From assembly GCA_001804285.1 (NCBI GenBank), contig MHFR01000053.1:15857-79856 (forward strand): DNA of 64,000 bases. Reading direction: 5' to 3'. The DNA comes from Candidatus Danuiimicrobium aquiferis (GTDB lineage: Bacteria > Omnitrophota > Omnitrophia > Omnitrophales > Danuiimicrobiaceae). The position numbers and the translations under genes were made by a program. This document shows positions 1-38,000 of this stretch, piece after piece (position 1 is the stretch's first letter; each line of letters starts with the position of its first letter). Below the pieces are notes generated by a model. The model had not been told where the DNA came from and ran no database searches. It saw only the letters and a list, made by a program, of their open reading frames with translations.

Positions 1-40
1 TTGAAATTCCGCATTTTGATAAAAAAACCTGAAGTCTCAT
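1..40 (-). CDS. 5' end of an unidentified gene running off the left window edge (13 codons visible: MRLQVFLSKCGIS...)
   Basis: ATG at 40..38 is preceded by AGGAGG (revcomp of 45-50) with a 5-nt spacer. The reading frame is open to coordinate 1. It is too short to assign a product. Confidence 0.3.
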   Translation of the reverse strand, partial: MRLQVFLSKCGIS

Positions 41-57: not shown

Positions 58-110
58 TAAAAAGGGGACAGGTCCTGCGTCACTTGAGTCAGGACCTGTT
101 CCTTTTTTCT
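58..110. terminator. Hairpin-A family palindrome (aaaaaggggacaggtcctg ... caggacctgttcctttttt), bidirectional intrinsic-terminator-like, downstream of aguA
   Basis: Roughly 17-bp inverted arms with a 12-nt loop, flanked by A-run and T-run so either strand gives a stem followed by a U-tract. It lies between the aguA stop (124) and the next gene start (40). Confidence 0.5.
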
Positions 111-123
111 TTGAGAACCGGTC

Positions 124-1260
124 TCAAGTACCCGGTTCTGCTGCTTGCTGCTGGGTCACGCAGTGAATCGCACCGCCGCCGACGAGCAGCGCGCCCGACG
201 GGACACCCACTACGCGCCGCTTCGGGAAACATTCCCGCAAAATACCGAGCGCTCTCGAATCATTCGAGTCCCCGTAAACAGGAACCAGAACGACTTCGTT
301 TCCGATATAAAAATTGGCATACGACCCCGGGAGTCTTTTTTCACCAGCCATGATTTTTCGAGGCATCGGCAAGCGAATGAAATTGAGCATCCCCATATTT
401 CCGGCGCGGTTTTCTTCGAGAATCCTCCAATTCCGCCGGATCATGTCACAATTCACGTCTGTCCGGTCATCTTCGTCAATCATCACCAGGGTATTTTCAT
501 TCACAAACCTTGCTACATTGTCGATATGCCCGTCCGTATCGTCGCCGAACAACCCGCCGAGTAGCCAAATGAATTGCTCAATCCCCAAATGTTCTTTTAA
601 AATCCGCTCGAGTTCTTCGCGCTCCGTTCCGTAATTCCGGTTCATATTTAAAAGACATTGTTCCGTCGTGATGAGCAACCCTTTTCCGTTCACGTCAATC
701 GAGCCGCCTTCCAGAACAATTCTCGGCCGAAAACGCGGCATATAAAGATCGTCCGAAAGAATCTCGGGAATTTCATTATCGGCAAGCTGGCGATCATATT
801 TAAAACCCCACGCATTAAAAATCCAATCGCAATAAGCGGATTTGCCTTCGCCGTTCAGTAAAAAGGTCGGGCCATAATCCCGAATCCACGGACCAACGGT
901 TTCAATTTGGTGGAAGAAAATATTGCTGACAATATCATGCCTCTTCAATTTTTCCACCACTTCATCTTCTTCAGATTGATCATCCACCAAAAGGTGAACT
1001 TCTTCCGCCTGGTGAAGCTCCTGAATCATCTTGAGATAGATTTCTTCCACTTGAATGAGTAATTCATCCTGCCAGGTTTCGTGGTCATGCGGCCAGGCAA
1101 GCCACGTCGAAATGTGGGATTCCCACTCAGCCGGCATCCGGTAACCGAGCCTTTTAGGAGTTGACGTATTTTCGTATTCAGGTAATGACATAAAATTGAT
1201 GGTTTCTATTTTTTCAACATTCGTGCTTAAATGTCCAATGTCCAAATCCTCAATGACCAA
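124..1260 (-). CDS. aguA: agmatine deiminase (porphyromonas-type peptidylarginine/agmatine deiminase family)
   Basis: 378-aa ORF. It has the N-terminal motif MPAEWESH...WLAWPH typical of AguA, and a C-terminal GGGAIHCVTQQ carrying the catalytic Cys. TTG at 1260 has GGAG five nt upstream. An alternative ATG (MSLPEY) at 1191 gives a more typical N-terminal length. Confidence 0.8.
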   Translation of the reverse strand: MVIEDLDIGHLSTNVEKIETINFMSLPEYENTSTPKRLGYRMPAEWESHISTWLAWPHDHETWQDELLIQVEEIYLKMIQELHQAEEVHLLVDDQSEEDEVVEKLKRHDIVSNIFFHQIETVGPWIRDYGPTFLLNGEGKSAYCDWIFNAWGFKYDRQLADNEIPEILSDDLYMPRFRPRIVLEGGSIDVNGKGLLITTEQCLLNMNRNYGTEREELERILKEHLGIEQFIWLLGGLFGDDTDGHIDNVARFVNENTLVMIDEDDRTDVNCDMIRRNWRILEENRAGNMGMLNFIRLPMPRKIMAGEKRLPGSYANFYIGNEVVLVPVYGDSNDSRALGILRECFPKRRVVGVPSGALLVGGGAIHCVTQQQAAEPGT

Positions 1261-1422
1261 GGAAGCTCCAATGTTTCAATCCCCAATTTTGACTTTAATT
1301 TTTTGGGATTTCCCTGCGTCATTGCGTGCTTGGACATTAGGATTTTCATACAAGTGAACTATTTCAGTTCCAGTCAGTCAATTTAGCCCATAAGGTAACC
1401 TTAGGCGGGAATACTTGCAAGC

Positions 1423-1476
1423 GAAAAAGGGAACAGGTCCAGACTCAAGTGACGCAGGACCTGTCCCCTTTTTTTT
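1423..1476. terminator. Hairpin-A family palindrome (gaaaaagggaacaggtcc ... ggacctgtcccctttttttt), terminator-like, immediately 3' of giant gene 1
   Basis: Inverted arms plus a T8 run. It sits 19 nt downstream of the TAA of the 13,117-aa ORF. Its loop is the approximate reverse complement of the loop in the copy at 58-110. Confidence 0.5.
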
Positions 1477-1494
1477 GCTTCAAACCGGTTTCAA

Positions 1495-2050
1495 TTATGC
1501 GGCAGAACCGGTCAGCTGCTCAGAGCGGATACCTTGAGCGAGAACGTGAATCACAAGATCCAATGCGCTCAGCGCGTCCCGGCTTTCCACCTGAATACGG
1601 TCGTCATGCCGCCTGAGCCATTCAACGGTCTTCTTGGAAAGCGCAACGAGTGCCGCCGTGAAAAGCTGTGCGGCGGTCCCCGTCTCTTTCTCGCCGCGAT
1701 AGCTGAACGGGACTCCGTTCGCATCCTGCCCCGCGTCAAACATGAGGCCCTTGATGCCGGTTACCGCAGTCGCAATGGTAATCGCAGGGTCATTTCCGAA
1801 AAATGTTTCCGAGTTGGGAAGCATTTTATTCGTGAAAATAACCTGCATCTGTTTTCCGGTCACCGAAATAATTCTTCGCACCGGATCATCCTGATTCACC
1901 GGAATGTTATCCATCACCGGCTTCAGCGATGACGGCATTGAAATACGCGGAATAATATGAAGGTTTGAATTTGCCGCCTGGCTCGCGAAGTCATGCAATT
2001 TCCGGACCACCGATTCGGCCCTTGCAGCGGCAACTTTTCCCCCTCGCCGC
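1495..2050 (-). other. conserved C-terminal domain shared by all three giant proteins (gene 1 copy, most divergent)
   Basis: ...FTAALVALSKKTVEWLRR...LAQGIRSEQLTGSAA aligns with ...LLLAGMGLLSKKDIDG...KDALAKAA in gene 2 and ...LLAAAVVLLSKQEIAGL...EEAMKRAA in gene 3. Confidence 0.5.
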
Positions 2051-5000
2051 GACTGCGAGGACAGGTCGCGCGCTTCGGATGACATCATGGCTAAATCTTC
2101 TTCGCTGATTTTGTAATCAACCATTGTCACTTCTTTGATTGACTGAATGGCTTCGGCAAGGTCCGTCGCACGGGCGAGATTTTCTTCGGTAAACGGATCC
2201 GTAGAATCATTCATCCTGTTGATTTCACTCACAACCGCTTGCCGCAATATGGACAACGCTTCTTCGTAAGTCATTCCGGAATTTCTTAAAACTGCCAACG
2301 CTTTTGTAAAACCCGAAATGTCTGTTGCGTCCGGCGTGCGGAGGAAAACCCGGTCGATAATCTCGCTAAATTGAGTTCCGGGTTCCGAGTTTAAAGTTTC
2401 GAGTTTACCGAAAAAGGGGACAGGCAATCGCTCAACTTGAATCATATGCCTGTCCCCTTTTTGTTTGGAACCCGAAACTCGAGACCCGAAACTGTTTTCA
2501 TTGCGCACTTCCGATCTTCCTAAGTCATTATCCGACAACGGCTTAGCGCTCCATCCCAATTTCTGAAGCGCCGCCTCCGATTTTTCATCCTGAACCTTCC
2601 GGTACATCTCAACCAAACGGTCGGCGTTCGCCGGATTAAATTCAAGGAGCATCGCATTCCCTGCAGGACTCACATGAACATCCACCAATTCCCGGAGCCC
2701 GTCGAGCGGTTCATCGAATGTCGGAAGTGACATCACGTCCAGAATCCATTCAAGGCCTTTGACCAGGCTGAGAGGAGAAGGAAAAAGATTCCGGAAATTC
2801 TCGGAAGCTTGTTGAAATTGATCGAGAGGAATGTCATACAGCACAAAATGCGGCTGAAGTGAAAATTCAGGGAAGGCCCCAACCAAAGATTGATTCATGC
2901 TTTCAAGGCTTTGAAGCAATGCCTCCGGTGTCCGCAATTTCTTTCCTAATCCCCGGTAACGTTTCCCCACCAAAAATCCGTCGGGAGGAATCCGGCTGAC
3001 GAGTTTCGGCGCCCGGGCTTCGCGCAAAAGATCTTCCTTCACCAACTCAGCAAGTTTTTGAAGCACCCGGTTTCCGTTCTGATATCCAATGCCATCCTTT
3101 TTGCCGTCCCCGCTCTGAAGCCTATGATATGCGCGGCCGGCCGATTTCTTTTCTAAAATCGCGTGCTCCGCAAAATAATCCCGGACGGACAGCAACATGA
3201 GGTTGTTCATCCTTCCATGGGCTAAATGATGTTTAAACGTATCCATATCCAGCGTCTTCGTTAGGGGATCCGGGTGAGCGCGAAGCATCCCTTCTTCGGC
3301 CTGTTTCGCTAACTTTTTCTGTTCAAGCGCTTCTCTTAACTCAACCACTTTCTGACTGAAAGCCTCGGAGGATAACCGTTTGCCTTCGGGAACGATATTT
3401 CCGATCCATCCTATGGAAGAAAGGACATAATTTTGATTCCGGCCGTTTTGTTTTGCTTTTGAAAGCGCATCGTTCGCGAAGCGCAATCCCCATATATAGA
3501 ATTCATCCAGCCGGTCTTCGCGAAGCTTACCGGCCTCGTCGACCCAATAATTCGAACCGGAAAAGGGGACAGGCATATTACTCAAAAGAGAGCGATTGCC
3601 TGTCTCCTTTTCCATATCCGTCGTCTGCGTGACCAAATAATCAAGCACTTGCTTGGCGGAAACAGCGCCGAGAGAAATGGTGAGGATATTTTCAAACTCA
3701 ACTGCGAGCAACCGCCCGGACGGAAGTTTTAATTCGTTCATGAGTCGCGCAAGTTCGACGCGTTGAAAAAACGTGCTGTCAGGGGAAGATGTCATTCCCA
3801 CGGAAGTGGGAATCCAGCTGGATCCCCGCGTACGCGGGGATGACACTTCTGAGATTGCTTCGACAATATTCTGACCGCCATCTCGCAATGACACGCCGGG
3901 GCCTTGTTTCCTGACCAGCAAATTAAACCCATTTCCATGCCGGACCGCCGCGACGATATATTTCAATCCCATGGTTCGGATCATTTTCTGGAATTCCTGG
4001 ATGTCTTTTTCTTTGTAGCCTTTTAAATCAAGCCGGTAAATCGCATACCGGTTTTCAAATGCCTTTGTGTATAACCCGACCGGTTGAGAAACAAATTCAG
4101 ATCTTCCCATTTTGGGACCGGCAAACTCCAGCACCGCTTCGTCTCCGCCGACATAGCGATGGATCTGCCCTTGCATGACTTGATTCAGGATTTCCCGCGC
4201 TTCACGGTATAACGAGACATTCGCGATGATGACATCCGGCGACGGCTCGTTTCCAAGCGTTCCGAAAAAGCGTTTCCCGAGCGCATCATTCCGGGCACTT
4301 AATAGATCGGAATCGATCATTGAAAAATAAAATTGGTCAAGCGTACCGGCTTTTGCGTGCATTTTGAGTTTCTTAAGATGCTCGACTTCACCCTCCGCCT
4401 GTGATGTAAGCGGATCCGAGGATTCAGTGCGGACTTCAGCTCTGAATTGAGTTCCTAGTTCCGAGTTTAAAGTTTCGAGTTGATCTGTTTGTCCTAACCC
4501 GAAACTCGGAACTCGAAACTCTGAACTATTTTGCAGACGCACCTCTCCCCGTTTCCTTATTGGTTCTGTCACCCCACCATTGCGCATTCCCGGTGGAATA
4601 AACGCATCAACAACGCCGGCTTCCATGCCAATGTTCTGATAAAACCCGTGGTCCGGCTGAAGTGGAACGCGAAGCGTAACGACATTTTTCGGCGTCGCCG
4701 GCGCGAGATATCCTTCGTCCATTTCCCTGAAAAATAAATATTGCCAACCTGCCCCATTTTTCTGAACAAGCTTAAGAAAATTGGTTTCATTGGGATCAAC
4801 TGCTTGCAGTTCGCCTTGGGGATCCACCATGCCAAGCATTCTTAATGCCTCCCCGGCCAAAGCAAATTCAGGATAACGAAAGGATACCGGCGTCAGCATC
4901 CGATGCAAATCCCTCAGCGCTTCCACGGACCCCGCATACGCTTTCACGAAATTCATCACGCTCGGTTCGGCTGCTTCGCGCTTTTTTCCTCTTCCGTCCG

Positions 5001-8000: not shown

Positions 8001-11000
8001 CCGTGTACGTTCTCACCTTTTCGACCTGATCAATTTGGAGCCTTTTGGCCGGTTTCTTCTCTGCCTCTTTCGCTTGAAAGGCTTCAAGAATATCGGCTCC
8101 CCACAAAGGATACCGGGAATCCGCCTCTCTTGATTGCGTGAGCCATATGGCAGAAAAAGCTTGTTGAAGCACCCCTCCGGCATCGTGTCCCGGTTCAAGG
8201 AAAGATTTCGCAACGGAGTCCACCACGTAAGCATACATCCCGGAAAAATTCAATATAGGCGCCGGCGCACCGGTCAAAAGTTCGAGTTTCATTTGGCGCA
8301 AGACTTCGTCGGAAGGCCTCGATAATCCGGCCAAAGCTTCATGCAATTTAGGTAAAATTTCTTCTTTCGTCACAAAAATTTTCTTCGGGGCTTTGGCCAT
8401 CATCTCTTTCACAGAGACATACCTCCCTGCAAGAACGTCTTTATTCAAAGCACCGGCTCCTTCCATATTACGGGCTAAATTAATTTGTTGCGCTATCTCC
8501 TCCGCCGTTTTGTTCTCTAATTGATCGAATAGCTGTCCTTGCTCCGGCGTCAGGCTTTCACGGGGAATCATTAAATTCAATAATGCGGCTGCGTCTTTGG
8601 CCCGGTCCGACAAAAGTACCAGAGGGCCTTTCGAAACACTCGCACCGATGGTTTCAAAAAAGACATTAATGGAATCCCAGAAATCAAATTCAAATGCCGG
8701 CGAAGTGGCAAAATATTCACGGATAATACTTTGATCCGTTTGAAATTTTTCGATCACAATCGATACAAATGCCAGGAGCGCAATGGCATCCGCTTCCCAC
8801 CGTTCGAGCAGCGTCCGTTGATCGGGAGAAATCTGTCCTTCGCGAATTAACTTTTGCAGATTCCGCACCGTTTTTTCCATGGTTAGGAATATTTCAATGT
8901 TTCCTTCAAAGCCTCCGGCCTCATCGTTTCTGTTGAGCACTTCAAAGATCGATATTTCCTGTAAATTGGTCTCGGCGCGCAAAGACGGATCGGCAACAAT
9001 CCGGTCCATGTGAGCCGCATGCATGGCCATCGGCGAACCGGTTTCCTTTAATTCGTCGACGGACTCTGAAATGGCCGTTTCGATCGCACCGATCGCCTGC
9101 GTGGCTTGCGTTTTTAATGTTTCAAAATCATTCGTCTCGCGGCCCGCAACTAATTTTCCGATCATGGCTTTGGATTTTGTATCAAAATTCAGGATATCAT
9201 CTTCTAATGTAGCTATCCGCGCCGGATCTAACGTTAACAAAGGATGAACCCGGGACTGTATGACGCGAAGTTTCGCATCCAAACTTGTTTTCGCTGCGGC
9301 AACACGATCTTGCAATTCGCGAGTCAGTTTGCGATTGAACTTCTGGGAAACCACTTGGGCGCGCTGGCTTTCAAATTCCCGCGCTTTGTCTTCCGACACA
9401 ATCCACTGCTCCGAAATATTTTTGCTCTTGTCGCCGATCGCTTCATTTAATTTCGCGACAAATTGAACCTTGGCGTCCCGGCTTAATAATCCCATAACAC
9501 CCACCGGCAGGTTCTCCATACGGACTCTTCCGCCTTCAATATCAGCTGCCAATTCTTTAATCCACGCAAGATGATCAATCCCTTTGCTGCGTTCTTTTGC
9601 GGCTTGCGCAGCAGTCCGGAAGCGTTCGGGAAACTTCGTAAACGTATTCGCATTTGCCGCCACCAACGTGATTTCAGAAACTTGTCCAAAATACGGAATC
9701 TCGACCGGCTGCTTGAACCGGAGCATGATCCGCTTCAGCCAGTATTGTTCGTTTTCAAGCACGACTTCAATATTTCCGAAATCCGTTTGCCTGCGAAGCG
9801 CCGCGGGGACAGTTTGATTGGTATTCAATCCGGGAATTATTTCCAAGCCCAGATTAAAGGCCTGATTAATTTCATTCCACCACACAAGCTGCTCGGCCGA
9901 CCGGACGGGAATCCGAAGGACCGACCGGGGATTTCCTTGCGAACCGGCTGCGGATCTCAACTGTTCGGGAAGCGTGACCAAAAGTTTGTCAAAAGCTTCG
10001 TCCTTGGACGTGATCGAATCAAGCTCCATTACCCGGATGTTGTCAAAAGAAAACCATTCAAGAAAAATTTTGATGAACCGGTCCGCATCGTGATGGAAAA
10101 AACCCGCCTCTTTGATGAATGATAAAACACCAAAAAGTGTACGACCGATTTCCCCTTCGCTGTGCGAATCAATCCATGAGTCCGTAAACATTTTCCGCAC
10201 CATTTCAATCAATAAATCACGTCCGGCATAGTCACGGGAGATATGTTGATCGAGGAAACGGTTCAGGTCTTCCGTGAAAAGTTTTGCGTTAAATTCCATT
10301 TGCTGGAAAGCGGCGTCCATCCCGCTCTGAGCGGAGCCGGGCAATGCGAGCGCGATGGTCCGTAAACTTCTTGCGATATAAGGAACCAAATCAGGTTGCG
10401 CCTTGGCCAGCGCCATGAGCTCATCGAAAGAGGCCCGGACTTCGCTGCGCTGTTCTTCCCGAATTTTTTCGGCAAGTTGATCGACCTTTTCTAAACCATT
10501 ACGATTCTTCGGCGAAGCCAATAAATTAATCGCGGCCTGGTCCAGCTCATCACCGGCCGAAATTAATATGTGTTTTAATTTTTTCGTAAGCCGGTCCACC
10601 TTTTCTCCGCTTAAAAACCATAAAACGTCGACAGCCGTTCGAATGCCCGAAGCAGGCTCCCCGGACGCGGCGAACCGGCTTAATCTTTCCTGGATTGTTT
10701 TTTCAATTGAATCCCGAAATCCGGAAAAACCTTTTTCACTGTAGATCGATCTCAGAAAAATAAGTTCGGCTGCTATCGGCGAACCATCTTCATTCTGCTC
10801 AATCGCTTTTCGAACGTCCCGAATCACTACGATGCCAACCCCGGCGCTGAGCGGTTCGAGCACTTCGTCAACATACCGGTGGACCGTTTCTTCTTCGGTA
10901 AAAAGATGCGCAAAAACCCTCACTTCTTCAAAAAGTTTCCGGACCTGCTCGAATGAAATGTCCGGCTTAGCCGCAAGATCATGAACATACCGGTACATCT

Positions 11001-14000
11001 CTTTCAGCGTCAGGGAATCGACCCCGCTATAAAGCTTGAACCAGTCAACCTTATACCGGTCTTCCGGATGCTCCAGATAATGCTTGAAAAATTCCATTCT
11101 TAGTTTTGACAAATCATCCCCAAACCACGACCGGTCTCCTCTAAACACGGCGTTAGAGGTCGGCCCCTTTTCCGAAAAGCTGAAGAACGAAATCAAAAGC
11201 AGTTGAGCACTCATTGATAATTCTGCGTCATCAGACCAGATGCTTTGATAGACCAAATCCGCGAAATGCGCCCCTTCTTCAAATACAAAAGCGGGGATAT
11301 TGTCTTTTGTCGCTTCCCGGGAGAACATTTTTTGTTGCAGCAACGAAACCGTTTGTCCGAGCTCTACCGTGTAGAACGACAGCAATCCCTCGCCCACCGT
11401 ACGAATGACGTTGTTCAGCGTTGCATCCGATTGTGCAAAAAAATCATCGGCGCGAATGATCGCGTCTGCTTCTTTCAACCGCGCCGGTAAAGAAGAGCTC
11501 CGGGTATCCGGCACGAGCGCCGCGACAAAATGTTCGTATTGCGGATGGCGAGTCCCGACCGTCTCGGCAAATCTAATTTTCGGATCGCCGGCTGTCCGCC
11601 GGATCGCTAACATACACAAAAACTTCAGATAAACCTGCACATTCTCTTTGACGTACATCTCATCAAAATATTTTCTGATTTTTTGGAACGCTTTATCTCC
11701 GAAGTTTTTGTTGATGGCGGCAACAAACGGGACTGAAATTTTATAATTGATGTTTCCGGCATGCCGGTCCACCAGATGCACATGAAACAACACTAAATAT
11801 TCGAGTAACGGATTCGGCGCGCGGGAAATATATTCGATGATCGCGTCCGCGGCATCACGCGGCCCCAGGTCCGACCTGATAAACGCACGGGCTCTTTCCA
11901 CCGAAGCGTCAATATCTCCAAAGAATTCGGAACGGTCCGCTGTGGCCCCGCGATAAATCGTCGCCATGATACTGCGTTCGGCGAGCAAATGTTCCGGGAC
12001 CGGTTTTCCTTGTTGGTCCGCAATTAAAAATTCATTCACTTCCGCGTTTAAATCTAAAATTCCGTTTCCGCTTTTCCCCAGATCTCCGAATTCATTAATG
12101 ATATATTGAACGACGGCCGGCTTTTCGCGCGGGCCCTCGGCTGCTTCCGGTATCCCGGAAGAAGTCATGCTTTCGGCAGGAATGTGGAGCCGTAATCCCC
12201 TGGGATCCTGAATCACCGCTCCGCCTTTTCGTCTTGTTTCCGCTTCAAGTTCATCACGCGGGTCCTGCATGAATGAACCCGGCCCCATTTCAAAGACTTT
12301 CACATCCCGCGGGAAACCCCACCGATCCGCCAAAGCAGGATCGATTTTTCCGATCACGCGTCCGCCTTGACCCATATTGGGACCGTCAGCCGGTGTCTCC
12401 GATACCGGTTCTGGCCCTAAAGGACCGCTTTGCGGGAGAACCGGAGTTGTTTCCCCGCTCGACGCAGCAACAGTTCTTGTATACTGATCATAATTTGCAA
12501 CAGCCAACTCGTTAATAGCGCGAGCAACTGCCTCGATTTCCTCGACAAAAACTTCAAGTTGAACGTGCAACGCCGGATCAACATTCGGATTATCGGCCCG
12601 CGCAGAACCAACGCTTAGCTGCAAGGATTCCCACTCGGAAAGCGAAAGAAATCTCCCCTTTCTGATCTTTGCATATAACGATTCCTGGCCTAATGCTTTA
12701 AAAAGAGGGCCGACAGAACGCCGTCTTACCACTTCAAAGAAAGCAAGGCCACGAGAAAACTTTTGCAAACTTTGTTCAAGAAATTGCGGCTGTCCTCTCA
12801 CCATCGTCTCGGCAAACAGAATTCGTTCTCTCCCGCTATTGAGCGCCTGATTTAACTTATTCCTTCCGCTTTCGGTATTTTGACCGATATTTTTGAAATA
12901 TTGTGCATGGGTAACCGGCGACAAATCATTGAGCGCAACTAAAAACTGGTGATATTCTCTTTGCGAAAGATTCCGGTTTTCATATAGTCGTGTTTTCTTA
13001 AAAATCCCGAGATTCGTCAGCGCGGTATTCACCGCATCGTTCATGATAAAGAAACCGCGGCTCAACTCAACTCCTAAAGCAGGATCTAAATGGCCGGAGG
13101 GTTGAAATGGTGATAAATCAATTTTCGGAAGAATATGACTTACTGCAGCCGGTAAGGTTGTTTCGGGTGTCATTGCGAGGCGAGAATCTGCTGGTTGCCG
13201 CGGCAATCCCTGCTCTAAGATTGCTTCGTTCGCCTCCGGCGAACTCGCAATGACGGGCGTGGCCGGTGCTTCAGGCTCAGCTTCTTCGGCTTCTATAATA
13301 GTCTCTGCTCCCGATGCGGCAACTGAAGGAGCTATCGGTTCAGCTATGGATTCTGGGAGGACTGGCACATCAACGCCGGACCTTGGCGCTTGGGCAACCC
13401 GTCTTCGCATGGCCAAAGTTCTTGTTTCTTCTTCAGGATAAATTTCGCGGGGCAATATTTCTTTCAATAGAAGCAACGACTCCTCGATCAACCCGCGAAT
13501 TTCGTCAAATATTTTTTCATGCTCGGGCAAATTCGCCCTAATCCATTCGCCGTCAGGAATCGCACCACGAAGCCCGACCAACCTTTTCACCAACCGGACA
13601 TATTGCTCGTTGATGTATCTGGCTTTCGTCTGTTTTGTGTGTTCCGCAACACGGTTTTTTGTACTCCGGACAAAATCCCGCACCGTTTCCGGCTGGGTTC
13701 GAAGAAACCCGTGCAATTCCTGCGTGGTCAATTTGGATTTGACGGTCTTTCTGGTTACGATTGATTCGGCGTGAATTTTTTCCCCGAGCTTTTTTCTCCA
13801 CTCGTCTAATGCGGGAACCGTCAATTCATTGATCCGCAGCCTTTCAAATTGGCCTACCAATTCTTTTCTGCTCCAGGATGAAACCACAGCGTCCTCCGGT
13901 AACACTTCCGCTAAAAATTGATTGATCTCGACGAACCGGTAATCTTTCCCTTTCACGTATCCCGGCAAACTGAAATCTTCCAGCTCCTCGCCATTCAAAA

Positions 14001-17000
14001 CAATCAGCGTGACCGGTTGTGCGGGATCGAAAAGGTCGGGATGTAATTCTTTGAGCAATGTATATTTAATAATGGCTTGCCCGATATCCGCAATGTCCGA
14101 ACCCAGCTTTGCGTCATAAATTCCCCGGTTCCATATATAGTCGGGAGCGCGATATTCCGACAAAAGCGGGTCGGACGCCACAAATCCGTCATAATCAAAG
14201 CGGCCCTGGCTCACGTGATGAAAAACAAGCGCAACCAATCGTTCGAACACATCTCCCTTCAGCTGCGCGTAATCCTTGGGTTTCCGCTCCGCCGTGCTTG
14301 CGGTTCGCTTCGCCGGCGTGTCTTTCTCCGTTGTGGTCGACGCAATCGCCATACTCCACTCTTCGGGTTGTTCCGAAAGCTTACCCATTTTGCGAATGAC
14401 GATCGCTCCGACAGAATCCGCATTCTTTTTCACTTCCGAAACAGATAGGTTCTGGGCCACGGCCGGCGAATCTTCGCCGAGCAGCGCGGAACCATTTCGC
14501 GGGACATAGATCTGTAAACCAAAACTATTCGTATCGGCATCGTAAAACGGAACAAGGTAATATTCGAGATGCCTGTATTTTGCTAAACCCGAAAACCGGA
14601 CAGGAGAAATAGATTCTTCCTCACCTCTTTGAATTTTCAACACATAAGCCACATCCTCCAACCCTCGCTGATTGACGGTCACGGCCATTTCCGGCTGCGC
14701 AGAACGGATTCCCGCTAACCATTCTTTATACTCTTGGGGCAAATAGCCTTGAGACATGTCTAATGCATAAGTTTTCTTGACCGGTTTCGGCCGTGCGGCT
14801 GGCTTCGCGCTCTTTTCAATAATACCCTTCCCCCATTCGGCCATCAGCCGCGGAAGTCCCATCCCGAGGTGTTCGGCTATAAATTGAAGCGTCTCCATCG
14901 CCCCTGTAAACATACTACGTAATTCATCGGTGCTCGGTTCGTTTGCTAAGGGTTCGGGTTCAAGCCGGACTTCTTCCAAAACCGCTTCTTCGGGCGCCGA
15001 GACAACCAGCCCCAGCCCTTGCTCCAAAAATTCGCGCGTTGCCGCTTCCGTTTGAACCGGATAAGTGCCGAGGAATTTTCCGCCGGAAATTAAATTTGTT
15101 TTGTCGGGAGTTCTTCGAATAGCTTGTGCAATGGATTGCAATTTTTCATGATCTTTCAGCGTTGTCTCATTCTTTTTTTCGCTGACCGACAGGATATAAA
15201 TATGTTTGCTGCCGGGCGAAACATAATACACAACGCGAAGGAATCCCTTCGTTCCGCTCCCCAATGGAAAATCTCGAAGTGGATTTAAGTCCGCAAACTT
15301 CGGCGTCTCGCTGCTTCGTCCTTCGAGCAATGTCACCAATTTGGCCCGAATGTCAGGCCCGTAGGCTTGTGCCCGCGCCGTTAATTCGCGAAACGCCTGG
15401 TCCGTCAGAACAAGGCTCCGGTCCGTTTCAATCCTCACCCGGAGCGGGGAAATTTCAAGAAGCTTGATGTGTCCCTTCCGCAATTGACCGTTTGCGCGTA
15501 AATGTTCCAATCCCGGAGGTAAGTCGTCAAAATGGCGCGTACGGATTTCGAACCGGTCATTTCTGAAATCGTTTTCCAAAGGCCCGGCTGCCCGTTCGAA
15601 AGCCGCCGTTAAACTGTGCTCCGTCAATTCAGGACTTACCTGGATCACCCGGACATTCCGGTTGTGCCTTAAAAGTAAACGCATGGCCGATGAAATATTT
15701 TCCGGCAAATTTTGCCAGGCACCGGTTCCGACGCTATATTTTGTACTCGTCAAATAAACGGTTTGACTACCCTGATTTTTTTCCCGGATAAAATGAACCA
15801 GCGGTACCGTGGCAGTACGGGCTTCGGACCTGAATTGAGTTCCGAGTTCCGAGTTTAAAGTTCCGAGTTTACCGAAAAAGGGGACAGGCATATGACTCAA
15901 GTTGAGCGATTGCCTGTCCCCTTTTTGTTTGCTGTCATTCCCGCGGAAGCGGGAATCCAGCTGGATCCCCGTTTGCACGGGGATGACACCCTTGTTAGCT
16001 TTAAAGTTGCGAACTTCCGCCCGACCGGCACCCCCCAAACGTTGGGCACGATCAAACACACCCACGTTATGTTTTGCCCATCGCCTGATTTCAGGATCCG
16101 TCGAATTTAAAAACGTTTCCGAGTCCCAAATATTAATCAAAATGTCCTGCGCACGCGAAATCCCGACATTCCGGCGTTTCTTCCCGTCCACCGGGTCCGC
16201 CAGAAATCCGACCGATCCGCCCTTGTTTGAACGGACCCACGATAAAATGACTGCTTTGTATTCCGATCCGATCGACGAATCAACGGTGATCACTTTAAAA
16301 GCGCCGCTTGACACATCCGCCGAAGGAACAAATGAATTCCCAAGGTCAAGATCACGGAGAAATTGCGTAGCCATTTCCTTGGTCGGCTGTGCGATAAAGC
16401 GCCGGACATCCGCATCAAATAATTTCATTTCTTCCTGAATTATTTTTTCCCGCTCGGGATAAGCTTTTTGACGAAAAGTCGGATCTTCACGGCTGAACTC
16501 CTGGAAAAGATTTTCATGCATCCGGAAACGGACAAATTCTGATTGGAATATCAAATTCAACGCAGCGGCAGATTCTGCGGAAATCGCCGGCGGTCCTTGC
16601 GCAGAAATAACAGATGAAAACGCTTCATGAATTTTCGAAAAATGAAGCAACGCATCCGAAATCATGTCAACCTGCCTCTGATAAGGCGAAATGACGGCAA
16701 TGTCCTTCGCCGCGACACCCTGTCGATTGATAAGCCGGTTCACCCAGCTCACAGCTAAGTTAATTTCGCCGCGGTTAAAGCGGCCCATTTCATCCACTTG
16801 CCCGGTCTTCTCTTCCCGGTAAATTCCTCTTGTATCTTCTTCAATGACGGTACCGTCGACATCACGCCCGGCAATTAATTTCCCATGATAAAAATAATTA
16901 ATGAGATCCACGATCAAACGGCCGGACCGGCGTTGAATATCGAAAAAATAAAAGGGCGGCTGCGTCACGCGAAAAACTTCCGCATCCCGGGTGAAAAATA

Positions 17001-20000: not shown

Positions 20001-23000
20001 GGTAAGCCATAATCAAAAATTCAACACTGCGGATATATTGCCCGGAAGAACCTTCTTTGATTTTTTCCGGTTTTTCCGCAATCGGAATCATTAATTTAAC
20101 GAATGTTCCAAATTCCTCCAAATCCCAAGCCAGCCCGGCCACTTGCATTAAATCCTGAGCATCGTTTTCAGAAAGAACAAAATCAAGAGAACGATTTAGA
20201 AATTCCGTTAACGCGCGTCTCCCCTCCTCATCCGACTGGAGCTTTGCATAGAACAACCCAAGCGAAATATAAGGCAGTGAATCTATCAAATCCCGGAAAG
20301 GCACTTTATTTTTTGCAGGCAGCCAATCTGGTTTTTTTTCTACAAGTTCTTTGACCCGGCTAAACCAATGATCCAAATATTGAGCGCTCTCCTTTGTTTT
20401 TCCCGTCATCATCGCACCCATGGAAGCCATCGCCGTCATTTGAAAGAAAGAATCATTTTTCAAAAAAACTTTTCGCGCTGAACTTACATCTTCTGTTTTT
20501 CCGCTCCCTGTTGCTTTTTTAACTAATTCGGCTGCTTTCCTCTGGTATTCCTGATGCAATCCTTCCACCGATTGCCAATCGCCCGCATCAGTAAAAACCT
20601 TGGTTAATTTCATCAATAGTTGCAGACTTTGTGCATCCGCAGAAAATATTTTAATTTTTTTAAGCAATGTTCCCCGTTCAGCTGCAATAAATTCTCTGAG
20701 TCCCTCGACCATCCGAACCTGCAACCAATTGAGCCGTCCGGATATTTCGAGAAAAGAGTCCAAAGCAACCACCCCCATTAAATAGAAAACCGGATGCATA
20801 TGAGTTGCCCCCATCATCTCGCTCATCTTCTGTTCCAGGCTGCTAATTTGTGAAAAAAACACTTTGGCGTCATAATCCGCCCGAATAAATTCTCCGGTGA
20901 GCCACTCCGTAAACTTAATTTGCCGGCGCTCGTGAAGCCTCATCGTTGAGATGGGCCCGGCAATAATTGAATCGTGGTACATGTCGTCATAGCTGACTGT
21001 CCTGGACGCAATTTCTTTGGCTTTCGCCTGAAGCCGCGCATACGTAACTTTGTTTTTTGCGACTCCCATCATTCGGTGAATCCGCCTCAAAGCACTCAAC
21101 CTGTTTTCGTCTTCTTCACCCGCTAAAAGAAATTCCAATTTTTCCCAGTCTTCCTCGCTCATGGTTTTTTGATTCAAGACCTCCCATGTCTGATTCATCA
21201 AATCACTCATTTCAATGTCTGTATACCGGTTAGCAAATTTATACAAGGCGAGGAATACAGATTTTTCTTTCGGCCATTCGTTCAACTTCCCCAAAATGGC
21301 TGACACCAAATCAGAAATCTCATCGCCGTGCCCGGACCGGTTGAGTAACGCAAGTTGATTCAAATGAACCTGCTGATCAATCTCCGGAAGCCGCAGCAAG
21401 ACTTCCAAAAACAATTTAAATATCTGATGCGCCTGTTCGTGACTCCCTGTAAGTTGATATAGACGCGCCAAATCAAACAGGACATACATCAGGAAAATAT
21501 TTTCTTTGGTGTTTCGATATTTTTCTGCAAGTGCGCTTAAAATATTGATCGCTTTCTGATACTCTTTCTGATACAGGGAAAGAGACGCGAAGAAATAAAA
21601 CCGCCAATCCAACGGGTCTGTGTCGCCCAAATCGTCCGTCAGCATTCGGAAAGCCAAAACATCTTCACGAACAATATCCGTTGCCTTGGCAAAAAATGAA
21701 ACCGCGCTTTGGTCCGCCGTATCCTCGTTTAGCAGCTTTGTCGCCAACATCCGCAAAGCCGCAAAATGAATCGTTTTGACGATCGGAAGACTATTTTTTT
21801 CTCCCACTAGCGGAGTCGTGATCTCAATCGTTTTGACCAACTCTTCATCACCGGCCAGCAATAAAAATACTGCCTTCTCAGATAGCAATCTTTCCTGAAT
21901 TAATTTTTTAGATTCCTTATCTTTTCGAAAAAATGATGACCGCTCCACTAAAACCAGGGCTTGATCAAGCCATTTTATTGTTTGGGTGATTTCATCGCTT
22001 TGAAGCGGCAGATTAAATTTTCGCAAGACTTCCGCAAAATCAAGGGTGGCAAAAGCGCGCCGCTCTTCCAGGAAGTCAGGCTCTCCAAGCAACATTTCAA
22101 GTTCCACCCGCATTTTATCGTACCGTTTAAGGTCCCTGAAAATATCCACCAGCAGCAAACGCCGGCCGATCAACAATTGAGGCTGATTCTGAAATACAAT
22201 CAAGGTTTCATACGTCATATGAATGAGCTCTTCATAATTTCCCTGAATCCTTAAAATAGCCTCGGCCATATAGTAATAAAGAGGCAGTTCCCTGCTGATA
22301 ATATTTTCCTGCGAAGAGAGTCTCACTCTAGGGTCATGCATCTTTCCAAGTGCAAGACGGGCCGGTTTTATTCGCTTTTTCAATTCATCGAGAATCAGAT
22401 TGAACTTGGGCTCAACATCGGCGAAATGAATATCGGGCTGATCGAGTCTGAACTGATGAGCCAGTTTAAGCCGCTTTAAGTCTTCTACAAGTTTCTGAAT
22501 CAAAGCGTCACTGGGGATTTTATCTTGTTGATATTTTTGCAAGGCCACCAAAAAAGAACCCGCGTCCACTGGTTCGGATGCGCGGGCTTCGGACCTCAAT
22601 TGAGTTTCGAGTTTACCGAAAAAGGGGACAGGCAATCGCTCAACTTGAGTCATATGCCTGTCCCCTTTTTGTTTGTCATTCCCGCGGAAGCGGGAATCCA
22701 GCTGGATCCCCGTTTGCACGGGGATGACACCCTTGTTAGCTTTAAAATTGCGCATTTCCGATCTTCCCGGAGCTCCGAGATATTTAAAGATAGAAGAAAT
22801 TTGATCTTTGAGATGATTGACTCGCCCGTTTTCCACAGATCCCTCAAGTTCTGTTACCGCAACGATTACTTTTCGAAGACCGCTCTGCAACCGTTGATAA
22901 TAACGCTCACGGATTTCCGTAGAAAAATAAACGCGTTGAATTTCCGCAAGCCGTGAACGGAACGACTCCAATCCCAGGGGAAGAATTTGAACCAGTGGCG

Positions 23001-26000
23001 TTGTTTTCAAATAATCTCTCAACCCGCCAAGCGCTTGGCGGACAAGCTCATCCCGGTATAACGTATAAATGTTGACCCGGTCTTGTTCAATTCTTGACCG
23101 GATTCTCAAAATCTCATCGATCCGGATTTCAATATACCGTTGCGCGGTTTCGATCGACGTTCTTGCGCCTTCCATATGTCCTTCGCTCAGCATCGTTAAC
23201 GATTGCTGTAAACTGTCCCCGGGTAGCGGGAGCACTTTCCCGCCGGCATCTCTATCGTGAACGGGAGTTTCCCGCCCTCCCAATCCTTTTTTGCCATCCA
23301 AAACTTTACGAATGTCTTGCCGGATCATTTCTGTGATAGTCGGTTCAACTCGTCCTCGTTGAAGAAATGCGGCATACCTTTTCATATTTTCAAGTGCTTC
23401 ACCCAAAATCTGGTGTTGTCCGAAAAACATCCCGAAATCTTCATGGTAATCCCGTAAAATATCATTCCGGCTCCGCAACGCTTCTTCCAAATTATCATAA
23501 TGAATGCCGGTTAAAACGCTTTCGCGTGACGTTCCGCCTCCGGCGACCGGTACATTTTTCCAAACATGCTGCCAAATAATAATTTTGCCGTCCGGAAGGA
23601 TTTCGATCCGTTCAACTGTTTTTTCCCTCGGCGAAAAATTTTTGTTCCGCCATTTGTATTCATAAGAAATGTCTTCGTAGGTTTTGATGATCTGATCGAA
23701 AAGATCGATAATTGAAGCCTGCTTCGGAATCGGAACCAATAATTTTTTTCGAAGCAACAATAATTGTGCTTTTAATTTCCGTTTCAGCCATCGGACGTTT
23801 TTCTTGCTCAATCCGTCGATTTCCAAAAGATTACCGATTTCTTCGGGAAGTTTAAATTGAGAGTTGATATTTGCCAAGATCGGATCGAACTCCGCGATTT
23901 TTGCTTGCAAAGCAACCGCATCATCAACCAAATTGCCCAACTCCTTTAGCGGTTCTATTTCTTCCGGAATATCAGGAATGATCTGGCGGATATTGATGTC
24001 TAATTCGGAAATAATTTCCGCCATGTCGGCAGCAAAGGCCCTTTGAAGTAACACCCGGCTCGATGAATCGGGATGATCTGCCCTTGCACTATTCCATTGG
24101 TGTAATAAGGCCAAAACTTTCCGCCGGCGCCTGTAAAATTTAATAATATTACCATCCGTCACTGCTTCCGCCGCCTTTGCTGATTTCACCGCGGCGCGGG
24201 CTTCAGCCCTCGATACATGTCTCTTGGAACGTATCGAGGACACTTGCGCGCTTTGACCAATGTCTGCTTTGGTACTATTTATATTGTTGCGCGCTTCGGA
24301 GCGCGTCCCCTGTGTCATTCCCACGGAAGTGGGAATCCAGCTGGATCCCCGCGTATCCGCCACTAAAGCGTTGGCGGATCCGACCGCATTGTTTGGCGGA
24401 CGCGGGGATGACAATCCTTGGGCTGTTCCATCGCCTCCGGTCGCTCGCAATAACGTGCCAATTCCGCGGACTTCGGATCGTTGTGCACCTTTCACCCGCT
24501 CGTGGAGACGGAGAAGCGTCTCGCGATTGAAAGAAATGACATCTTCAAGCCGTTCGCCAGCTAAAATTTTCTTTTCGATTTCTCCGCGGAAAGAATCTTC
24601 GATTCCGCCGAACTCATCGTCCGGCATGTGTTTGTAAATCACATCATAAATTACCATTTCAAGCTCGACGAGCTGCTTCACATATTGTTTCCGCATCCGG
24701 TTATTTTGAGTCTCATCCCTGCCAAACAAAATCGTCCGTCCATCTAATGCGTTTAACGTGTCGCGAACATTGCGCAATCGTTTTCGCAACCGTTGATAAC
24801 CCGGATCTTCAAACTGCGGCGGGAAACGGTTCCGCAACTGATCGATTTCTTTGACGGTTTCTGAAATCTTCGCGCCGTCAAGTAGCACCTGCACGGGTTT
24901 CCGGACCACATCCCGCACTTCCATCGTTTTCAGGGCGATGTATTTCGAAATCCTGATATTTTCATCCACATAATTTTCAATATGAAAACGGGCCCAGCGA
25001 ATCGCACGAGCGAGCACCTTGTCGTCCGTAAACAAAAACGCGAGCTCCGCCCCGACCATGTCATCAATCACGATCCTTCTCGAAGGTTTTTTGCCGCGAG
25101 ACGCCCATTCCAGCACATTCGCCAAATTGTCACGGATGTGTTTCCGGGCTTTCTGCCTTGCGTCCGTCACGCCCGGAATATCTTTGTCGAGTTGGCCTTT
25201 TTGAAGTTCTTTTAAACGGCCCAGGGCATCGTCCAAGTATCCCAACATATCGTAAGCCGCCATGTTCGCTTCCGCATAACTCCAAAGCGTGTGATCAAAT
25301 GCGCGCAAAAGATCAAAAACATTATGATACTCGGCCCCGATAAGATCAGCGGAAACGGTATCAATATCGGCTCTTCCATATTGATTAAAATTCGCTTCAA
25401 TATTTTCTTGCTCTTTTTCATCATCCGCTTTCGATAAAAGAAATTCCTCAATATCATCAAAAATAACGCCATGAAGTCCGTTCTCTTCGATGACCCCGCT
25501 TGTGAACACTTGAACGACAGCATCTACCGAAACCTCGCTGGCTTTGCCTTTGATTTTTCCGCCTTCCTCACGAATCCGCGAAACCACGAAATCCTTAAAT
25601 CCCGGCAATTCCCAATATGGCTGAATCAATTTCTCGACGGAATTTTTTAAATAAGCCCGCTGCCGCCGGTAACCGATCCGCTCGACCACCAGCACATCCC
25701 CTTTGAATAATTTCCGGATTTTCGCTTTCACATCCCCGCGAATTTCACCCGTCGCCGAATCAAGAAGTTCTGAACGGACCTCCTCCGTGCCGAGCACGCT
25801 GCGGAAGAACTCCTTACTTAAAAGATAATTCCCGATACTCCATCCCTTGATGTCTTCTTGTGTCATATAGCGAATGACTTCCCGCCGGCCGGCTTGCCTG
25901 ACGCGTTTCCACAAGAATTCGCGCTTGAGTGCGTTCATGTGATAACGTAGCTGGCGGAAACGTGAGAATAACACTCCGAGCTTCGGCGAATCCGCCGTCA

Positions 26001-35000: not shown

Positions 35001-38000
35001 TATGAAAATCCGCAATCCAAATTTCCATTTGTTGATCCGTCATGCGCGCTTCCGACCTTTCAGCGGCAACTTCTGGCCTTTGCCGCGGCTGCAAGGACAG
35101 GTCGCGCGCTTTGGCACGTTTGAATGTTTCCTTCGAAACATTCAAAGTACTTTCGCGCATTCCGATTGATAACCGGTTGTCACTCTCATTATTGTTACGC
35201 GCTTCGGTTAATAACTGCTGTGGCTTTCCCGATTCGATGCGCGCTTCCGACCGTTGATTGACGGAAATCTCCAAAGATTGAATGGCCGATCCTTCCTGAA
35301 GTTCTTCAAGCGAGACAGCAACTTCAACCTTCGTCAGATATCCAACCGACGCTTCGACCGTTCCGCTCCTCATTTCGGTTTCATCTAACCCATGATATTT
35401 CATTTCGCTCAAATTGAAATCAGCCCGCCAAAGAATCCCCGGAGCGCCGCCGTTACTCGCCGTTTTTATTTTTTGAGCAAGATCCTTTAGCCCGCGTTTG
35501 CTGAAAAACAATCTGTCATGACGCGCCAGCCAATCGATATTTGCAATGTTAAACACCAACCGTTTCCGGGCTTGCATTCCGCCCCCTGAAATTTGAAAGA
35601 AAAGGGGAATACTTTGTCCTGCCTCCCTGTCTTCCCAAAAAACAAGCACGGCTTCTTTATGATTGCCCGGCAAATCAAAACCGAAACCTCCCAACGCTTC
35701 CGCTATCTCTTCCGCACCTTCAAGATACAAAGCACGGAAACGGTTCCGGCCGGCTTCGCCGTCAAACGGCTTTAACGATGAATCAAAAAATTCGACACCC
35801 GCGACTTGTATTCCTTCGATTCCGAGCGGTTGCTGTGATACAGCTTCGTCCTTCTGTTCCGGCTCGACCTCCAAGTTGAGATCGAACATAGAATTCTCAT
35901 CGATTTGACCCTGGGATCCTTTTCCCACCCCCAAATTTGAAATCCATCCCGTCGGCACAACGTGAATCCCTCGGAAATGCAATCCGGGGCCCGACGGAAG
36001 CTGATCATCTTGTTCTTGATTGACTCGCGTAAAAACTTCAGCACGCATTTGCTTCATGGCCCGAAGTTCATTTTCCGGATCGTATCGATCAAAAACAGGT
36101 TTCATGACATTAAAATCGTAGACCCCTCTATCGGCATAAAAAGAATATCCCGTTTGAGACCCCGCGGCCCCGCCGGATATTTGAAGGAAAAGCGGCTCAT
36201 GCGTATCTCCCTGAGAATGCCACATCACGAGCATAGCCTGGACATCGCCGGTGAGATTTAAGCCCAATCCGCTCGAAATCACTTCCGGCTGCCTTAAGTG
36301 AAAAACCTCATAAGAACCATTTAACCCTTCCATCGGGAAAGTTTGTTTTTCGCCCACTCCGATATTGACACCTTCCCAATGAAGATTCCTGGCTTCAGAC
36401 CGTTTCATCCCCGGCTTTTCCTGAGTCTTGGCTCTTTTGCTCTCAAGCGCCGCCGTGATTGTTTTCCTGGTTAAAACAGTAAAGTCTTCATCTTCCAACT
36501 GTCTCCGAAACAACTGCCCCTCTTTCCAATTCGCCTCGCCTTGTTTGGCATTCAATAAATCTAAGAACGTCAAGAAGTCCTTTCCAACTATTTGTTCAAG
36601 CTCTGATTCCTTGATGCCCAACGCCTCGGCTACCAATTTCATCAGAGATTTCCGCGCGATCTCTTTCCTCGGAAACGTCATTCTTTCGTCTTGTTCCCGC
36701 AATTGCGCCGTTAGTTTGACGGCATAAACATTAATAATCGCATCCACAATGTCCTGATTTGAGATCGGACCGGAAACTGACTGATCCGGGCTTTTTCCTT
36801 TCTTCGCCCGGGTTTCTGAGCGGACGGGACCTTGCCCTTCATCTGATAAAAAACTTTTCGGCTTTCTCATGTTCGCTTGCGGAGGCGAAACCTTCCGATC
36901 CACTCGAAGTGCTGCGCCGCGATCATCAAATTCCAGAACTCCCATTTCGGCAGCTTCTTTTAAGAACCGATCTATCAATTCATGAAGCCCGTATTGTTTA
37001 CCTTCAATTAAAGAAACTGCTTCTTTGACTTTGCCAGATCCTGCGCGACTGAATACCTGCTCTATTTGGCGTTGGAAAAGTGAACTCACATCAATGGACA
37101 GAAAAGGCCTTGAAGAACGCCGATCAGGCAATTCCAATTTGTAGTTAAGCTCCAGCCCGTGCGGCGCTTTTAATAATCGAATATATTGATTCAAATCTTT
37201 CGAACGAATCCGGAAGTCGGGCCGACTGTGTTCAAATTCAATCGTATAGCTTCTGCCCGTTTGTCGATCCCCAAGCATCGTATAAATAGGCTCACCCGAT
37301 TCTACCGGTAACTGCTCCCACAGGAAGGCAGCCAATTCTTCTTCAGACACAGCCCCGAACATCTGTTCCAGCTGCCGGGAGTACGGATATTGTTTCTCGC
37401 TAAGTTCGGTCAATATCGTTTCCGGCAAGAATTTCTTTGATTTCAAAAATTGAAGCAGCAAATAAAATCCGGGTATGCGCGGCACAGAAATTTGAGGAAT
37501 GAACGGCTGATCATCCTGAAAAATGATCCCTTCGCTCGTTAATGCATCAGCCCCCCAATTCAATTCCCTGATGCTTTTCATTAATTCTATCACTACAAAA
37601 AACGACAAGTGATCGACGTCCAAATGAACGTCTGAAAAAGACATGTCAGGAATCGACACATAAAGCTGATCTCCTTCCTTGATACGGTTCCTGACGGCAA
37701 ACGCATAATCGTAATCATCCCAAACTTCATACGGGATCAAATCCACCGTTATTCGATGCACGCCCATTTTAGCCATTGCTTTTCTGAATCGAATTCCGAC
37801 AGGGCTCGAAACAAATAATGGCAAAAGTTCATGTCGGCTAACTTTGGCGTTTTCAATCAATGTTGATTGATATTCCAAAAATGCATCGCGAGATGCAAAT
37901 GAGCCGCCAAACATGGGATCCACCCGTACGTAACGGAGAATCGTCTCGGCGTCTTTTGCCTGAACAACTTGGATCGAAACCACCGGTACATCGCCTTCGT

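Follow-up and report, generated by a model that had tools for sequence, protein, structure and literature searches.

The window analysed here, a 64,000-nt stretch of the genome of Candidatus Danuiimicrobium aquiferis (Omnitrophota; contig MHFR01000053.1), carries all of its genes on the minus strand. Near its left end two intergenic hairpins, hereafter H1 and H2, bracket a gene of the agmatine deiminase family (aguA), with a giant gene upstream and rluB downstream. Both hairpins are copies of a short palindromic repeat, the hairpin-A family, which also occurs in frame inside giant open reading frames (ORFs), and the present text concerns what these two copies are, how they came to face each other and what they may do to the transcripts that contain them. 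The locus and the genes beyond it are laid out as follows.

1-40, minus strand: start of rluB (23S rRNA pseudouridine synthase; S4 and PseudoU_synth_2 domains), ATG at 40-38, GGAGG at 50-46
59-109, minus strand: H1, hairpin-A copy of the GGTCC subfamily; on the plus strand A5 at 59-63, stem-loop at 64-102, T6 at 103-108
114-139, minus strand: small 8-bp CCGG-centred hairpin with the aguA stop codon in its loop; contains the flank motif TACTTGAGACCGGTT
124-1191, minus strand: aguA (PF04371, E = 6.6e-107), 355 amino acids from the ATG at 1191, stop at 124-126
1392-1420, minus strand: candidate aguA promoter, TTGCAA-N17-TACCTT, 3 nt after the U-tract of H2; picked by eye, resembles the sequences upstream of giant genes 1 and 2
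1424-1476, minus strand: H2, the H1 element inverted; on the plus strand A5 at 1424-1428, stem-loop at 1429-1468, T8 at 1469-1476
1483-1513, minus strand: analogous small hairpin with the giant-gene-1 stop codon in its loop; contains TAATTGAAACCGGTT, in direct orientation relative to the aguA site
1495-40848, minus strand: giant gene 1, 13,117 amino acids, stop codon (1495-1497) preceding H2; at least eight full in-frame hairpin-A copies
41304-55607, minus strand: giant gene 2, 4,767 amino acids
55765 to beyond 63996, minus strand: giant gene 3

The reading frame of rluB continues past the left end of the window, and the longest ORF of aguA reaches a TTG at 1260. H2 starts 18 nt past the stop codon of giant gene 1 and lies between that stop and aguA; H1 starts 15 nt past the aguA stop and ends 18 nt ahead of the rluB ATG, 8 nt from its Shine-Dalgarno sequence. 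Because two independent contigs of the Joint Genome Institute (JGI; L133 and L134) show 100% identity with the window over the aguA locus, neither the hairpins nor the locus can be assembly artefacts. The NCBI contig is likewise 100% identical across the locus except for its N gaps; counted apart from the window, four assemblies cover all or part of the locus and are identical to the window, none with an inverted version; among these assemblies from the same population there is thus no polymorphism in hairpin presence or loop orientation.

A repeat search of the window returned the two elements as a 51-nt inverted repeat with arms at 59-109 and 1423-1473 that are 96% complementary. In inverted alignment H1 and H2 are 94% identical, while neither exceeds 81% identity to any other copy of the family. 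In both, an A-tract and a T-tract enclose a GC-rich hairpin; its stem is built on GGGGACAGGTCC, and its loop of 16-18 nt contains a small inner helix. The initial annotation, which placed the elements at 58-110 and 1423-1476 in intergenic DNA and noted their T-runs, described their loops as approximate reverse complements. Both elements do sit directly downstream of the two stop codons with their T-runs, and the loops of the pair (ctgcgtcacttgagtcag and cagactcaagtgacgcag) depart from exact reverse complementarity at just one of 18 positions; the relationship is in fact wider, since it spans the entire elements, stem mismatch included. As the mismatch moves together with the loop, the core has been inverted as one unit. 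The fold scoring proposed in that annotation gave energies of about -25 to -35 kcal/mol: the sense (minus) strand RNA folds at -25.5 kcal/mol for H1 (z = -4.75) and -35.1 kcal/mol for H2 (z = -6.4), the plus-strand RNA at -32.3 and -31.3 kcal/mol, respectively, and none of 200 shuffles folded as well (z from -4.7 to -7.0 overall). Rfam 15, searched with the window and the NCBI contig L001, returned no match at the gathering threshold and, at a permissive threshold, sub-threshold matches to generic hairpins at chance level.

Kinship with the rest of the family was evident from several sides. The arm pattern AAGGGGACAGG-N18-40-CCTGTCCCCTT has seven exact matches in the window against 0.00 expected, and an nhmmer profile recovered 13 full copies, the two intergenic ones and 11 inside giant ORFs. 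The relationship goes beyond the arms because a loop segment, GACTCAAGT, is also common to H1, H2 and the copies at 15875 and 22619. That one repeat family serves in two contexts, between genes and as a translated insert, was thus rightly surmised in the initial annotation. Copies show no preferred orientation. Two more lie within the 10 kb beyond the left window end, both between convergent genes; one occupies the 62-nt spacer of such a pair and the other abuts the stop codon of an FBP-aldolase gene.

Could H1 and H2 instead be conventional terminators that evolved independently and merely look alike, or paired motifs of the DNA-uptake type? Similarity confined to the arms might reflect convergence, and pairs of uptake sequences form terminators in Neisseria and Pasteurellaceae. 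Here, however, the loops (17/18) and the stem mismatch are identical too, and single arms without a partner (up to two mismatches) are about as frequent as chance would have it, seven in the window against roughly five expected by our own calculation, so that nearly all real arms are paired, whereas uptake sequences are mostly singletons. Loop identity rules out the independent-terminator version and the chance-level count of single arms rules out uptake sequences (DNA uptake sequence or uptake signal sequence); taken as a whole, this explanation is highly improbable.

The full copies within the giant genes are these.

2411-2462: giant gene 1, GGCA subfamily, translated as KGDRHMIQVERLPVPF
3561-3612: giant gene 1
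15875-15926: giant gene 1, core the exact reverse complement of 22619-22670, flanks direct
22619-22670: giant gene 1, partner of 15875-15926 (52/52 complementary)
34253-34302: giant gene 1, GGTTC subfamily
39860-39908: giant gene 1, GGTTC subfamily
40010-40061: giant gene 1, coincides with a 17-residue (51-nt) alignment gap against giant gene 2
40556-40607: giant gene 1, coincides with 7- and 6-residue gaps against giant gene 2
56828-56880: giant gene 3
58844-58893: giant gene 3, T-tract interrupted by G
62213-62262: giant gene 3, T-tract interrupted by G

These copies are translated as (E/K)KGTG...PVPF or KGDR...PVPF. A further gap of 21 residues against giant gene 2 falls at 38687, where giant gene 1 has a degenerate half copy. 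Since the hairpin-encoded peptides of giant gene 1 fall in gaps of its alignment with giant gene 2, the in-frame copies are insertions. The alignment itself covers the first ~900 residues of the two proteins, which are paralogous at 39% identity (window 37849-40848 versus 52608-55607) and begin with a signal-peptide-like start. In giant gene 2, at 54690-54760, the counterpart of the copy at 39860-39908 resembles a decayed copy (GAAAAAGGTAAGC...GCTCCTTCCCCCTTGA); if it is one, that insertion would predate the duplication of giant genes 1 and 2.

The duplicated segments that hold the copies at 15875-15926 and 22619-22670 offer a view of how a core may turn. The non-palindromic flanks of the two segments are direct repeats, and only the hairpin between them is reversed. 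A comparable situation is found at aguA, where, contrary to what the initial annotation implied, the repeated unit is longer than the hairpin and extends ~20 nt further upstream on the sense strand in direct orientation. The motif TA(C/A)TTGA(G/A)ACCGGTT lies on the sense-upstream side of both H1 and H2 at nearly equal distance; the two instances are identical at 13 of 15 positions, and 29 of 5000 shuffles score as well. At either gene the motif falls inside the small CCGG-centred hairpin around the stop codon. Judged from these sequences, the 3′ module at aguA and giant gene 1 is in direct orientation and the palindromic core alone is flipped. For this reason, and because the same flip occurs inside giant gene 1, the inverted bracketing is uninformative as to whether aguA was mobilised. 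Three consecutive genes, giant gene 1, aguA and rluB, all end in or next to TA(Y/A)TTGA(R)AC(S)GGTT (window 1483-1494 and 116-127; L133 11379-11397), and the stop codon of both aguA and rluB is the TGA of this shared end motif.

Mobilisation of aguA as a small cassette, whether composite-transposon-like or as an invertible or integrated segment, had been raised in the initial annotation, with comparison to related genomes set beforehand as the test. H1 and H2 are indeed each other's closest relatives (94-96%) and stand in opposite orientation. As aguA has no close homologue outside its own population (best non-self match 53% identity), relatives were located by RluB. Three Omnitrophota genomes (L135, L136 and L137) carry an RluB that is 59-63% identical to ours together with an aguA that is 47.5-49% identical to the window's. 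Their gene order is DUF748 - CN_hydrolase (aguB-like) - aguA - lipid A acyltransferase-like (lpxL-like) - (CrcB) - rluB - 4HBT - PTPS - thioredoxin ... PG_binding - NUDIX - acyltransferase, with overlapping start and stop codons in the aguA-rluB run, and none of the three 16-kb regions contains a hairpin of the family. The source genome keeps the downstream order thioredoxin ... PG_binding - NUDIX - acyltransferase.

Compared with these relatives, the source genome (L133) has no aguB-like CN_hydrolase gene upstream of aguA and no lipid A acyltransferase-like gene between aguA and rluB, and the giant-gene block occupies the place of DUF748 and aguB. The locus has therefore been rearranged, which a cassette would accommodate. 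The remaining evidence goes the other way. In all three hairpin-free relatives aguA lies one or two genes from rluB in the same downstream neighbourhood, and its divergence is in line with that of RluB; no direct repeat abuts the outer ends of H1 and H2 as a target-site duplication would, and no transposase or integrase Pfam domain is found among the genes within 10 kb. The flank is direct and the core flips elsewhere with no cargo, copies also stand at other 3′ ends, which makes one at each of two adjacent genes unremarkable, and the four additional assemblies lack an inverted version. We consider the cassette very unlikely, and the suggestion does not survive the comparison. Given that the linkage and the downstream order are shared with relatives that lack the hairpins, aguA is an old, vertically inherited neighbour of rluB to which the hairpins are later additions.

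Our observations extend beyond this genome. Among species-representative genomes, at least 119 stretches from many phyla, cultured isolates included, contain the exact arms AAGGGGACAGG...CCTGTCCCCTT. Viral contigs carry the arm pattern in 12 stretches, whereas each of two permuted hairpin patterns of equal composition had 0. Roughly one third of the matches listed share a longer arm, AAAAAGGGGACAGGCTRCTTTTT, for which convergence does not seem to account. Several genomes have multiple copies with loops in both orientations. The positions of 131 hairpins among the matches listed (L002-L132) were compared with random positions.

Between convergent 3′ ends: hairpins 20%, random positions 0.8%
After one 3′ end: hairpins 30%, random positions 5%
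Inside an ORF of at least 120 amino acids: hairpins 33%, random positions 81%

Hairpins with GGGGACAGG arms are thus enriched at gene 3′ ends across phyla, as far as these 131 copies among the matches listed go. In two phage contigs with identical flanks (L122 and L129) the hairpin lies ~10 nt after the major capsid gene, and a third contig (L127) has the same hairpin with a homologous capsid ORF. No particular gene is linked time and again to the ~130 cross-phylum copies; what recurs near them is generic PAS/GGDEF and ABC/UvrA-type families, with no transposase among them. A BLAST search of cultured phages with the viral-contig variant found no match, and a literature search on the arm sequence returned unrelated primers only. 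Two papers on Omnitrophota giant genes make no mention of hairpins, palindromes or terminators. A metagenome scan for the H1/H2 subfamily found the same locus (L138) and an unrelated short contig (L139), in a collection that evidently lacks L133 and L134, so that absence from it says little. Positions 1-744 of L138 (Ga0076146_177) are identical to window positions 1716-973; within aguA the contig then passes, in frame, into DUF218-like and sialic-acid-type genes, probably through chimeric assembly and less likely through a genuine rearrangement.

Do the hairpins terminate transcription? The initial annotation saw in them the look of bidirectional terminators, and the look bears scrutiny: A- and T-tracts stand on both sides, at least five T follow the stem on both strands (the sense-strand tails are TTTTTATAAAT for H1 and TTTTTCGCTTG for H2), and more copies of the family lie between convergent gene ends. 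A discriminant of the d'Aubenton-Carafa type was positive on both strands, at +10.3 (H1) and +13.7 (H2) in sense and +32 and +29 in antisense. A simple terminator scan missed both elements and is uninformative here, its loop limit being 8 nt.

The two sites differ in what follows them. As ~230 nt with promoter-like sites separate H2 from aguA, H2 is a plausible terminator of giant gene 1. Downstream of H1, the rluB ATG comes after 18 nt, no promoter-like site was found before it, and the genes are operonic in the relatives. A strong terminator at H1 would silence rluB. For these reasons we doubt that H1 acts as a full stop, and from its setting it is more likely an intercistronic attenuator or partial terminator, or a stabiliser that protects the 3′ end of the upstream message.

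An action on RNA that involves no termination is a less probable alternative: the hairpins could be RNase III sites, blocks to 3′-exonucleases, or structures like those of repetitive extragenic palindromic (REP) elements that lower upstream translation or occlude the rluB ribosome-binding site. The stems measure ~20 bp when A-U pairs are counted, near the length RNase III needs, and the hairpins of Correia elements are RNase III substrates. H1 is intercistronic and close to the rluB Shine-Dalgarno sequence. In the minimum-free-energy structure a six-pair helix forms directly 3′ of H1 (...CCUUUUUAUAAAUCAGGAGG...), and by our reading of the sequence the U-tract of H1 pairs with the rluB GGAGG. 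REP elements within ~15 nt of stop codons reportedly lower expression. A role of this kind also copes better with the in-frame copies. Sequence alone cannot tell it from attenuation, and the two are not exclusive; the conserved A/T tracts on both sides, however, are a specific feature of terminators and would be superfluous in a pure processing site.

That the copies are functionless at both sites, selfish or neutral DNA that persists at 3′ ends since it is harmless there, is to our mind improbable. An argument of this sort has been made for pneumococcal repeats, and several observations agree with it: 11 of the 13 window copies are inside ORFs, orientation is not preferred, the better T-tract is antisense, and the syntenic relatives manage with no such hairpins. 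Against it, a stable hairpin with U5 right after a stop codon would affect RNA polymerase or 3′-end decay to some degree whatever its origin, and copies are placed exactly in the spacers of convergent genes as well as downstream of a phage capsid gene.

We therefore favour, with a probability of about 0.65, the reading that H1 and H2 are copies of a ~50-nt terminator-like interspersed palindromic repeat whose core was flipped in situ and whose family spread both between genes and in frame. The unit consists of a GC-rich stem on GGGGACAGG/CCTGTCCCC that closes a variable loop, with an A-tract at one end and a T-tract at the other. In the genome concerned (RIFCSPLOWO2_12_FULL_44_17) it would have spread to the spacers at gene 3′ ends and also, in frame, to parts of the giant genes that tolerate it. 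By in-situ inversion of the hairpin, as inside giant gene 1, the core at aguA would have turned while the longer 3′-end module stayed direct. On mRNA each of the two copies would form a stable 3′ stem-loop with five U residues behind it. Transcription of the giant gene is most likely terminated or attenuated at H2, ahead of a separate aguA promoter, and H1, within a probable aguA-rluB transcript, may be a partial terminator or an intercistronic hairpin protecting the 3′ end. How copies are made, like termination and attenuation themselves, is what we infer from these patterns.

Several points weigh against this reading. Eight of the 12 in-frame copies that were scored match H1 and H2 in sense-strand terminator score, and with efficient termination by the family, full-length transcripts of a 39-kb gene that contains such copies would hardly be expected. 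Termination by the family would be either weak or masked by translation. In E. coli, coupled ribosomes are known to suppress terminators inside genes. For H1 to terminate strongly, rluB would have to be dispensable or have its transcription start within aguA. The antisense (plus) strand has better T-tracts and scores than the sense strand, for which reason we see no sign of optimisation for the two genes. Loops of 16-18 nt with weak internal pairing exceed those of typical intrinsic terminators. The role as terminator or attenuator is suggested by sequence features, and, as no target duplication, empty site or mobilising enzyme was found, the word mobile rests on dispersal and on insertion relative to paralogues.

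The cross-phylum matches allow a bolder proposal, which we regard as improbable: instead of many terminators that arose by convergence, the GGGGACAGG-armed hairpins might represent a single portable terminator that spreads horizontally across bacteria and is carried by phages, or else a site targeted by a conserved factor, and the in-frame copies might be translation-gated terminators. A ribosome trailing the polymerase would melt the in-frame copies, and a giant transcript left untranslated would be aborted at the next copy. If true, such gating would be a checkpoint against wasteful 40-kb transcription.

Further observations concern the composition of the giant genes. At the 13 intragenic sites that were translated (38687, 60990 and the 11 full copies) a single frame, CCT GTC CCC TTT, is used throughout for the 3′ arm and gives PVPF or PVPV, although none of the three frames contains a stop. 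For the 5′ arm the reading is GTG (or GTA) at nine sites and GDR at three; the degenerate half copy at 38687 fits neither. These readings suggest selection at the peptide level, phase-specific insertion, or spread through intragenic duplication. A second palindromic family, a double hairpin TGTCATTCCCGCGGAAGCGGGAATCCAGCTGGATCCCCG..CGGGGATGACA that is read as VIPVQTGIQLDSRFRGND, occurs in frame in the giant ORFs and often adjoins hairpin-A copies (3792-3845, 15935-15988, 22676-22729, 24315-24368 and 57509-57562). A third in-frame repeat consists of AGTTCCGAGTTT/AAACTCGGAACT palindromes with peptides such as LETLNSEPGTQF (4435-4513, 15823-15901, 27199-27277, 32044-32152 and 48828-48906). In their linker regions the giant genes resemble a patchwork of small palindromic units.

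Upstream of giant genes 1 and 2 the promoter-like sequences TTGCAT-N17-TATACT and TTGCAT-N16-TATATA, respectively, resemble each other. Between the stop of giant gene 2 and the start of giant gene 1, the spacer (40960-41290) contains two different long hairpins, neither of the hairpin-A family: one formed by ggcatcccgtaagaagtgtctc...gagacacttcttgcaggatgcc and another of ~150 nt with an A-tract and a T-tract. The NCBI contig L001 (MHFP01000071.1) has N gaps at 9106-9143, 1162-1176 and 11952-12009, two of them within giant gene 1, which probably explains why its annotation has just a 171-amino-acid C-terminal fragment of that gene. The window and the JGI contig L133 fill these gaps, and the frame of 13,117 codons stays open.

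Taken together, the hairpins that flank aguA should be read as later additions by a repeat family and not as the borders of a cassette. One terminator-shaped unit of 50 nt stands after stop codons and also, as a 17-codon in-frame insert, in genes as long as 13,117 codons, and one may ask how transcription of such genes passes hairpins of terminator grade. The family can serve as a sequence marker for how the linkers of Omnitrophota giant proteins are built and, if the arm found across phyla reflects homology, it would represent an unusually widespread small mobile or functional element. There is more potential in these family-level questions, the terminator-grade hairpins in frame and the cross-phylum arm, than in the aguA locus itself.

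Among known systems, canonical bidirectional intrinsic terminators share the A-tract, GC-rich hairpin and T-tract as well as the positions after stop codons and between convergent genes; they differ in that they are not near-identical multicopy sequences with conserved loops, do not lie in frame in coding DNA and lack the large loops (16-18 nt) seen here. REP elements, their bacterial interspersed mosaic elements (BIME) and REPINs, mobilised by REP-associated tyrosine transposases (RAYT), are also short imperfect palindromes at 3′ ends or within operons in both orientations, and REPs stabilise the 3′ ends of mRNA or serve as attenuators. In some cross-phylum copies the arms are arranged as a-B-a' ... 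a-B'-a', which is reminiscent of REP doublets. In contrast, the window copies carry no GTAG/GTGG head, are mostly intragenic and have A/T tracts that REPs lack. GTAG is absent from H1, H2 and the other window copies, while some cross-phylum copies have GTAGCC in the arm, and no RAYT gene was seen in the ~74 kb of genome examined. Membership in the REP/REPIN class was rejected on the missing head and on location, 11 of the 13 window copies being in ORFs.

The Rickettsia palindromic elements (RPE) and in-frame miniature inverted-repeat transposable elements (MITE) are likewise found both between genes and as peptide-adding insertions in unrelated genes. RPE, however, measure ~100-150 bp and are not terminator-shaped, whereas the units here are ~50 nt (17 codons) long and their hosts are giant multi-domain genes. 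Of the features that define a MITE, inverted arms are present, no duplication was recognised and no parent element was found, nor does any neighbouring gene recur near the ~130 cross-phylum copies. Correia repeat-enclosed elements of Neisseria also form hairpins; they are RNase III substrates, affect neighbouring genes and are capable of inversion in situ. At 100-150 bp, they have defined terminal inverted repeats, a TA duplication and promoters, none of which is seen here. For the flip, minute hairpin-loop inversions in chloroplast non-coding DNA are said to turn a loop between matching arms while the flanks stay. This pattern resembles both 15875 versus 22619 and H1 versus H2 and, coming from a different system, is a mechanistic precedent only.

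The closest analogue appears to be SPRITE of S. pneumoniae, which has A-run and T-run ends (AAAA/TTTT) and a duplex of ~18 bp with a U-rich tract after it, which exceeds the length of ordinary terminators, is strongly enriched near the 3′ ends of coding sequences and between convergent genes, has no known target duplication or mobilising enzyme and has been proposed to function as a terminator (2011, PMC3049150). Common to both are dispersal as a repeat, the A/T-run ends and the location at gene 3′ ends and in convergent spacers. The two have no sequence relationship and belong to different phyla; SPRITE is AT-rich, numbers ~30 copies per genome and is not reported in ORFs, whereas most local hairpin-A copies are translated in frame and the arm recurs across phyla. 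By analogy with SPRITE, REP and RPE, the best reading would place the hairpin-A family in the known class of terminator-like interspersed palindromic repeats.

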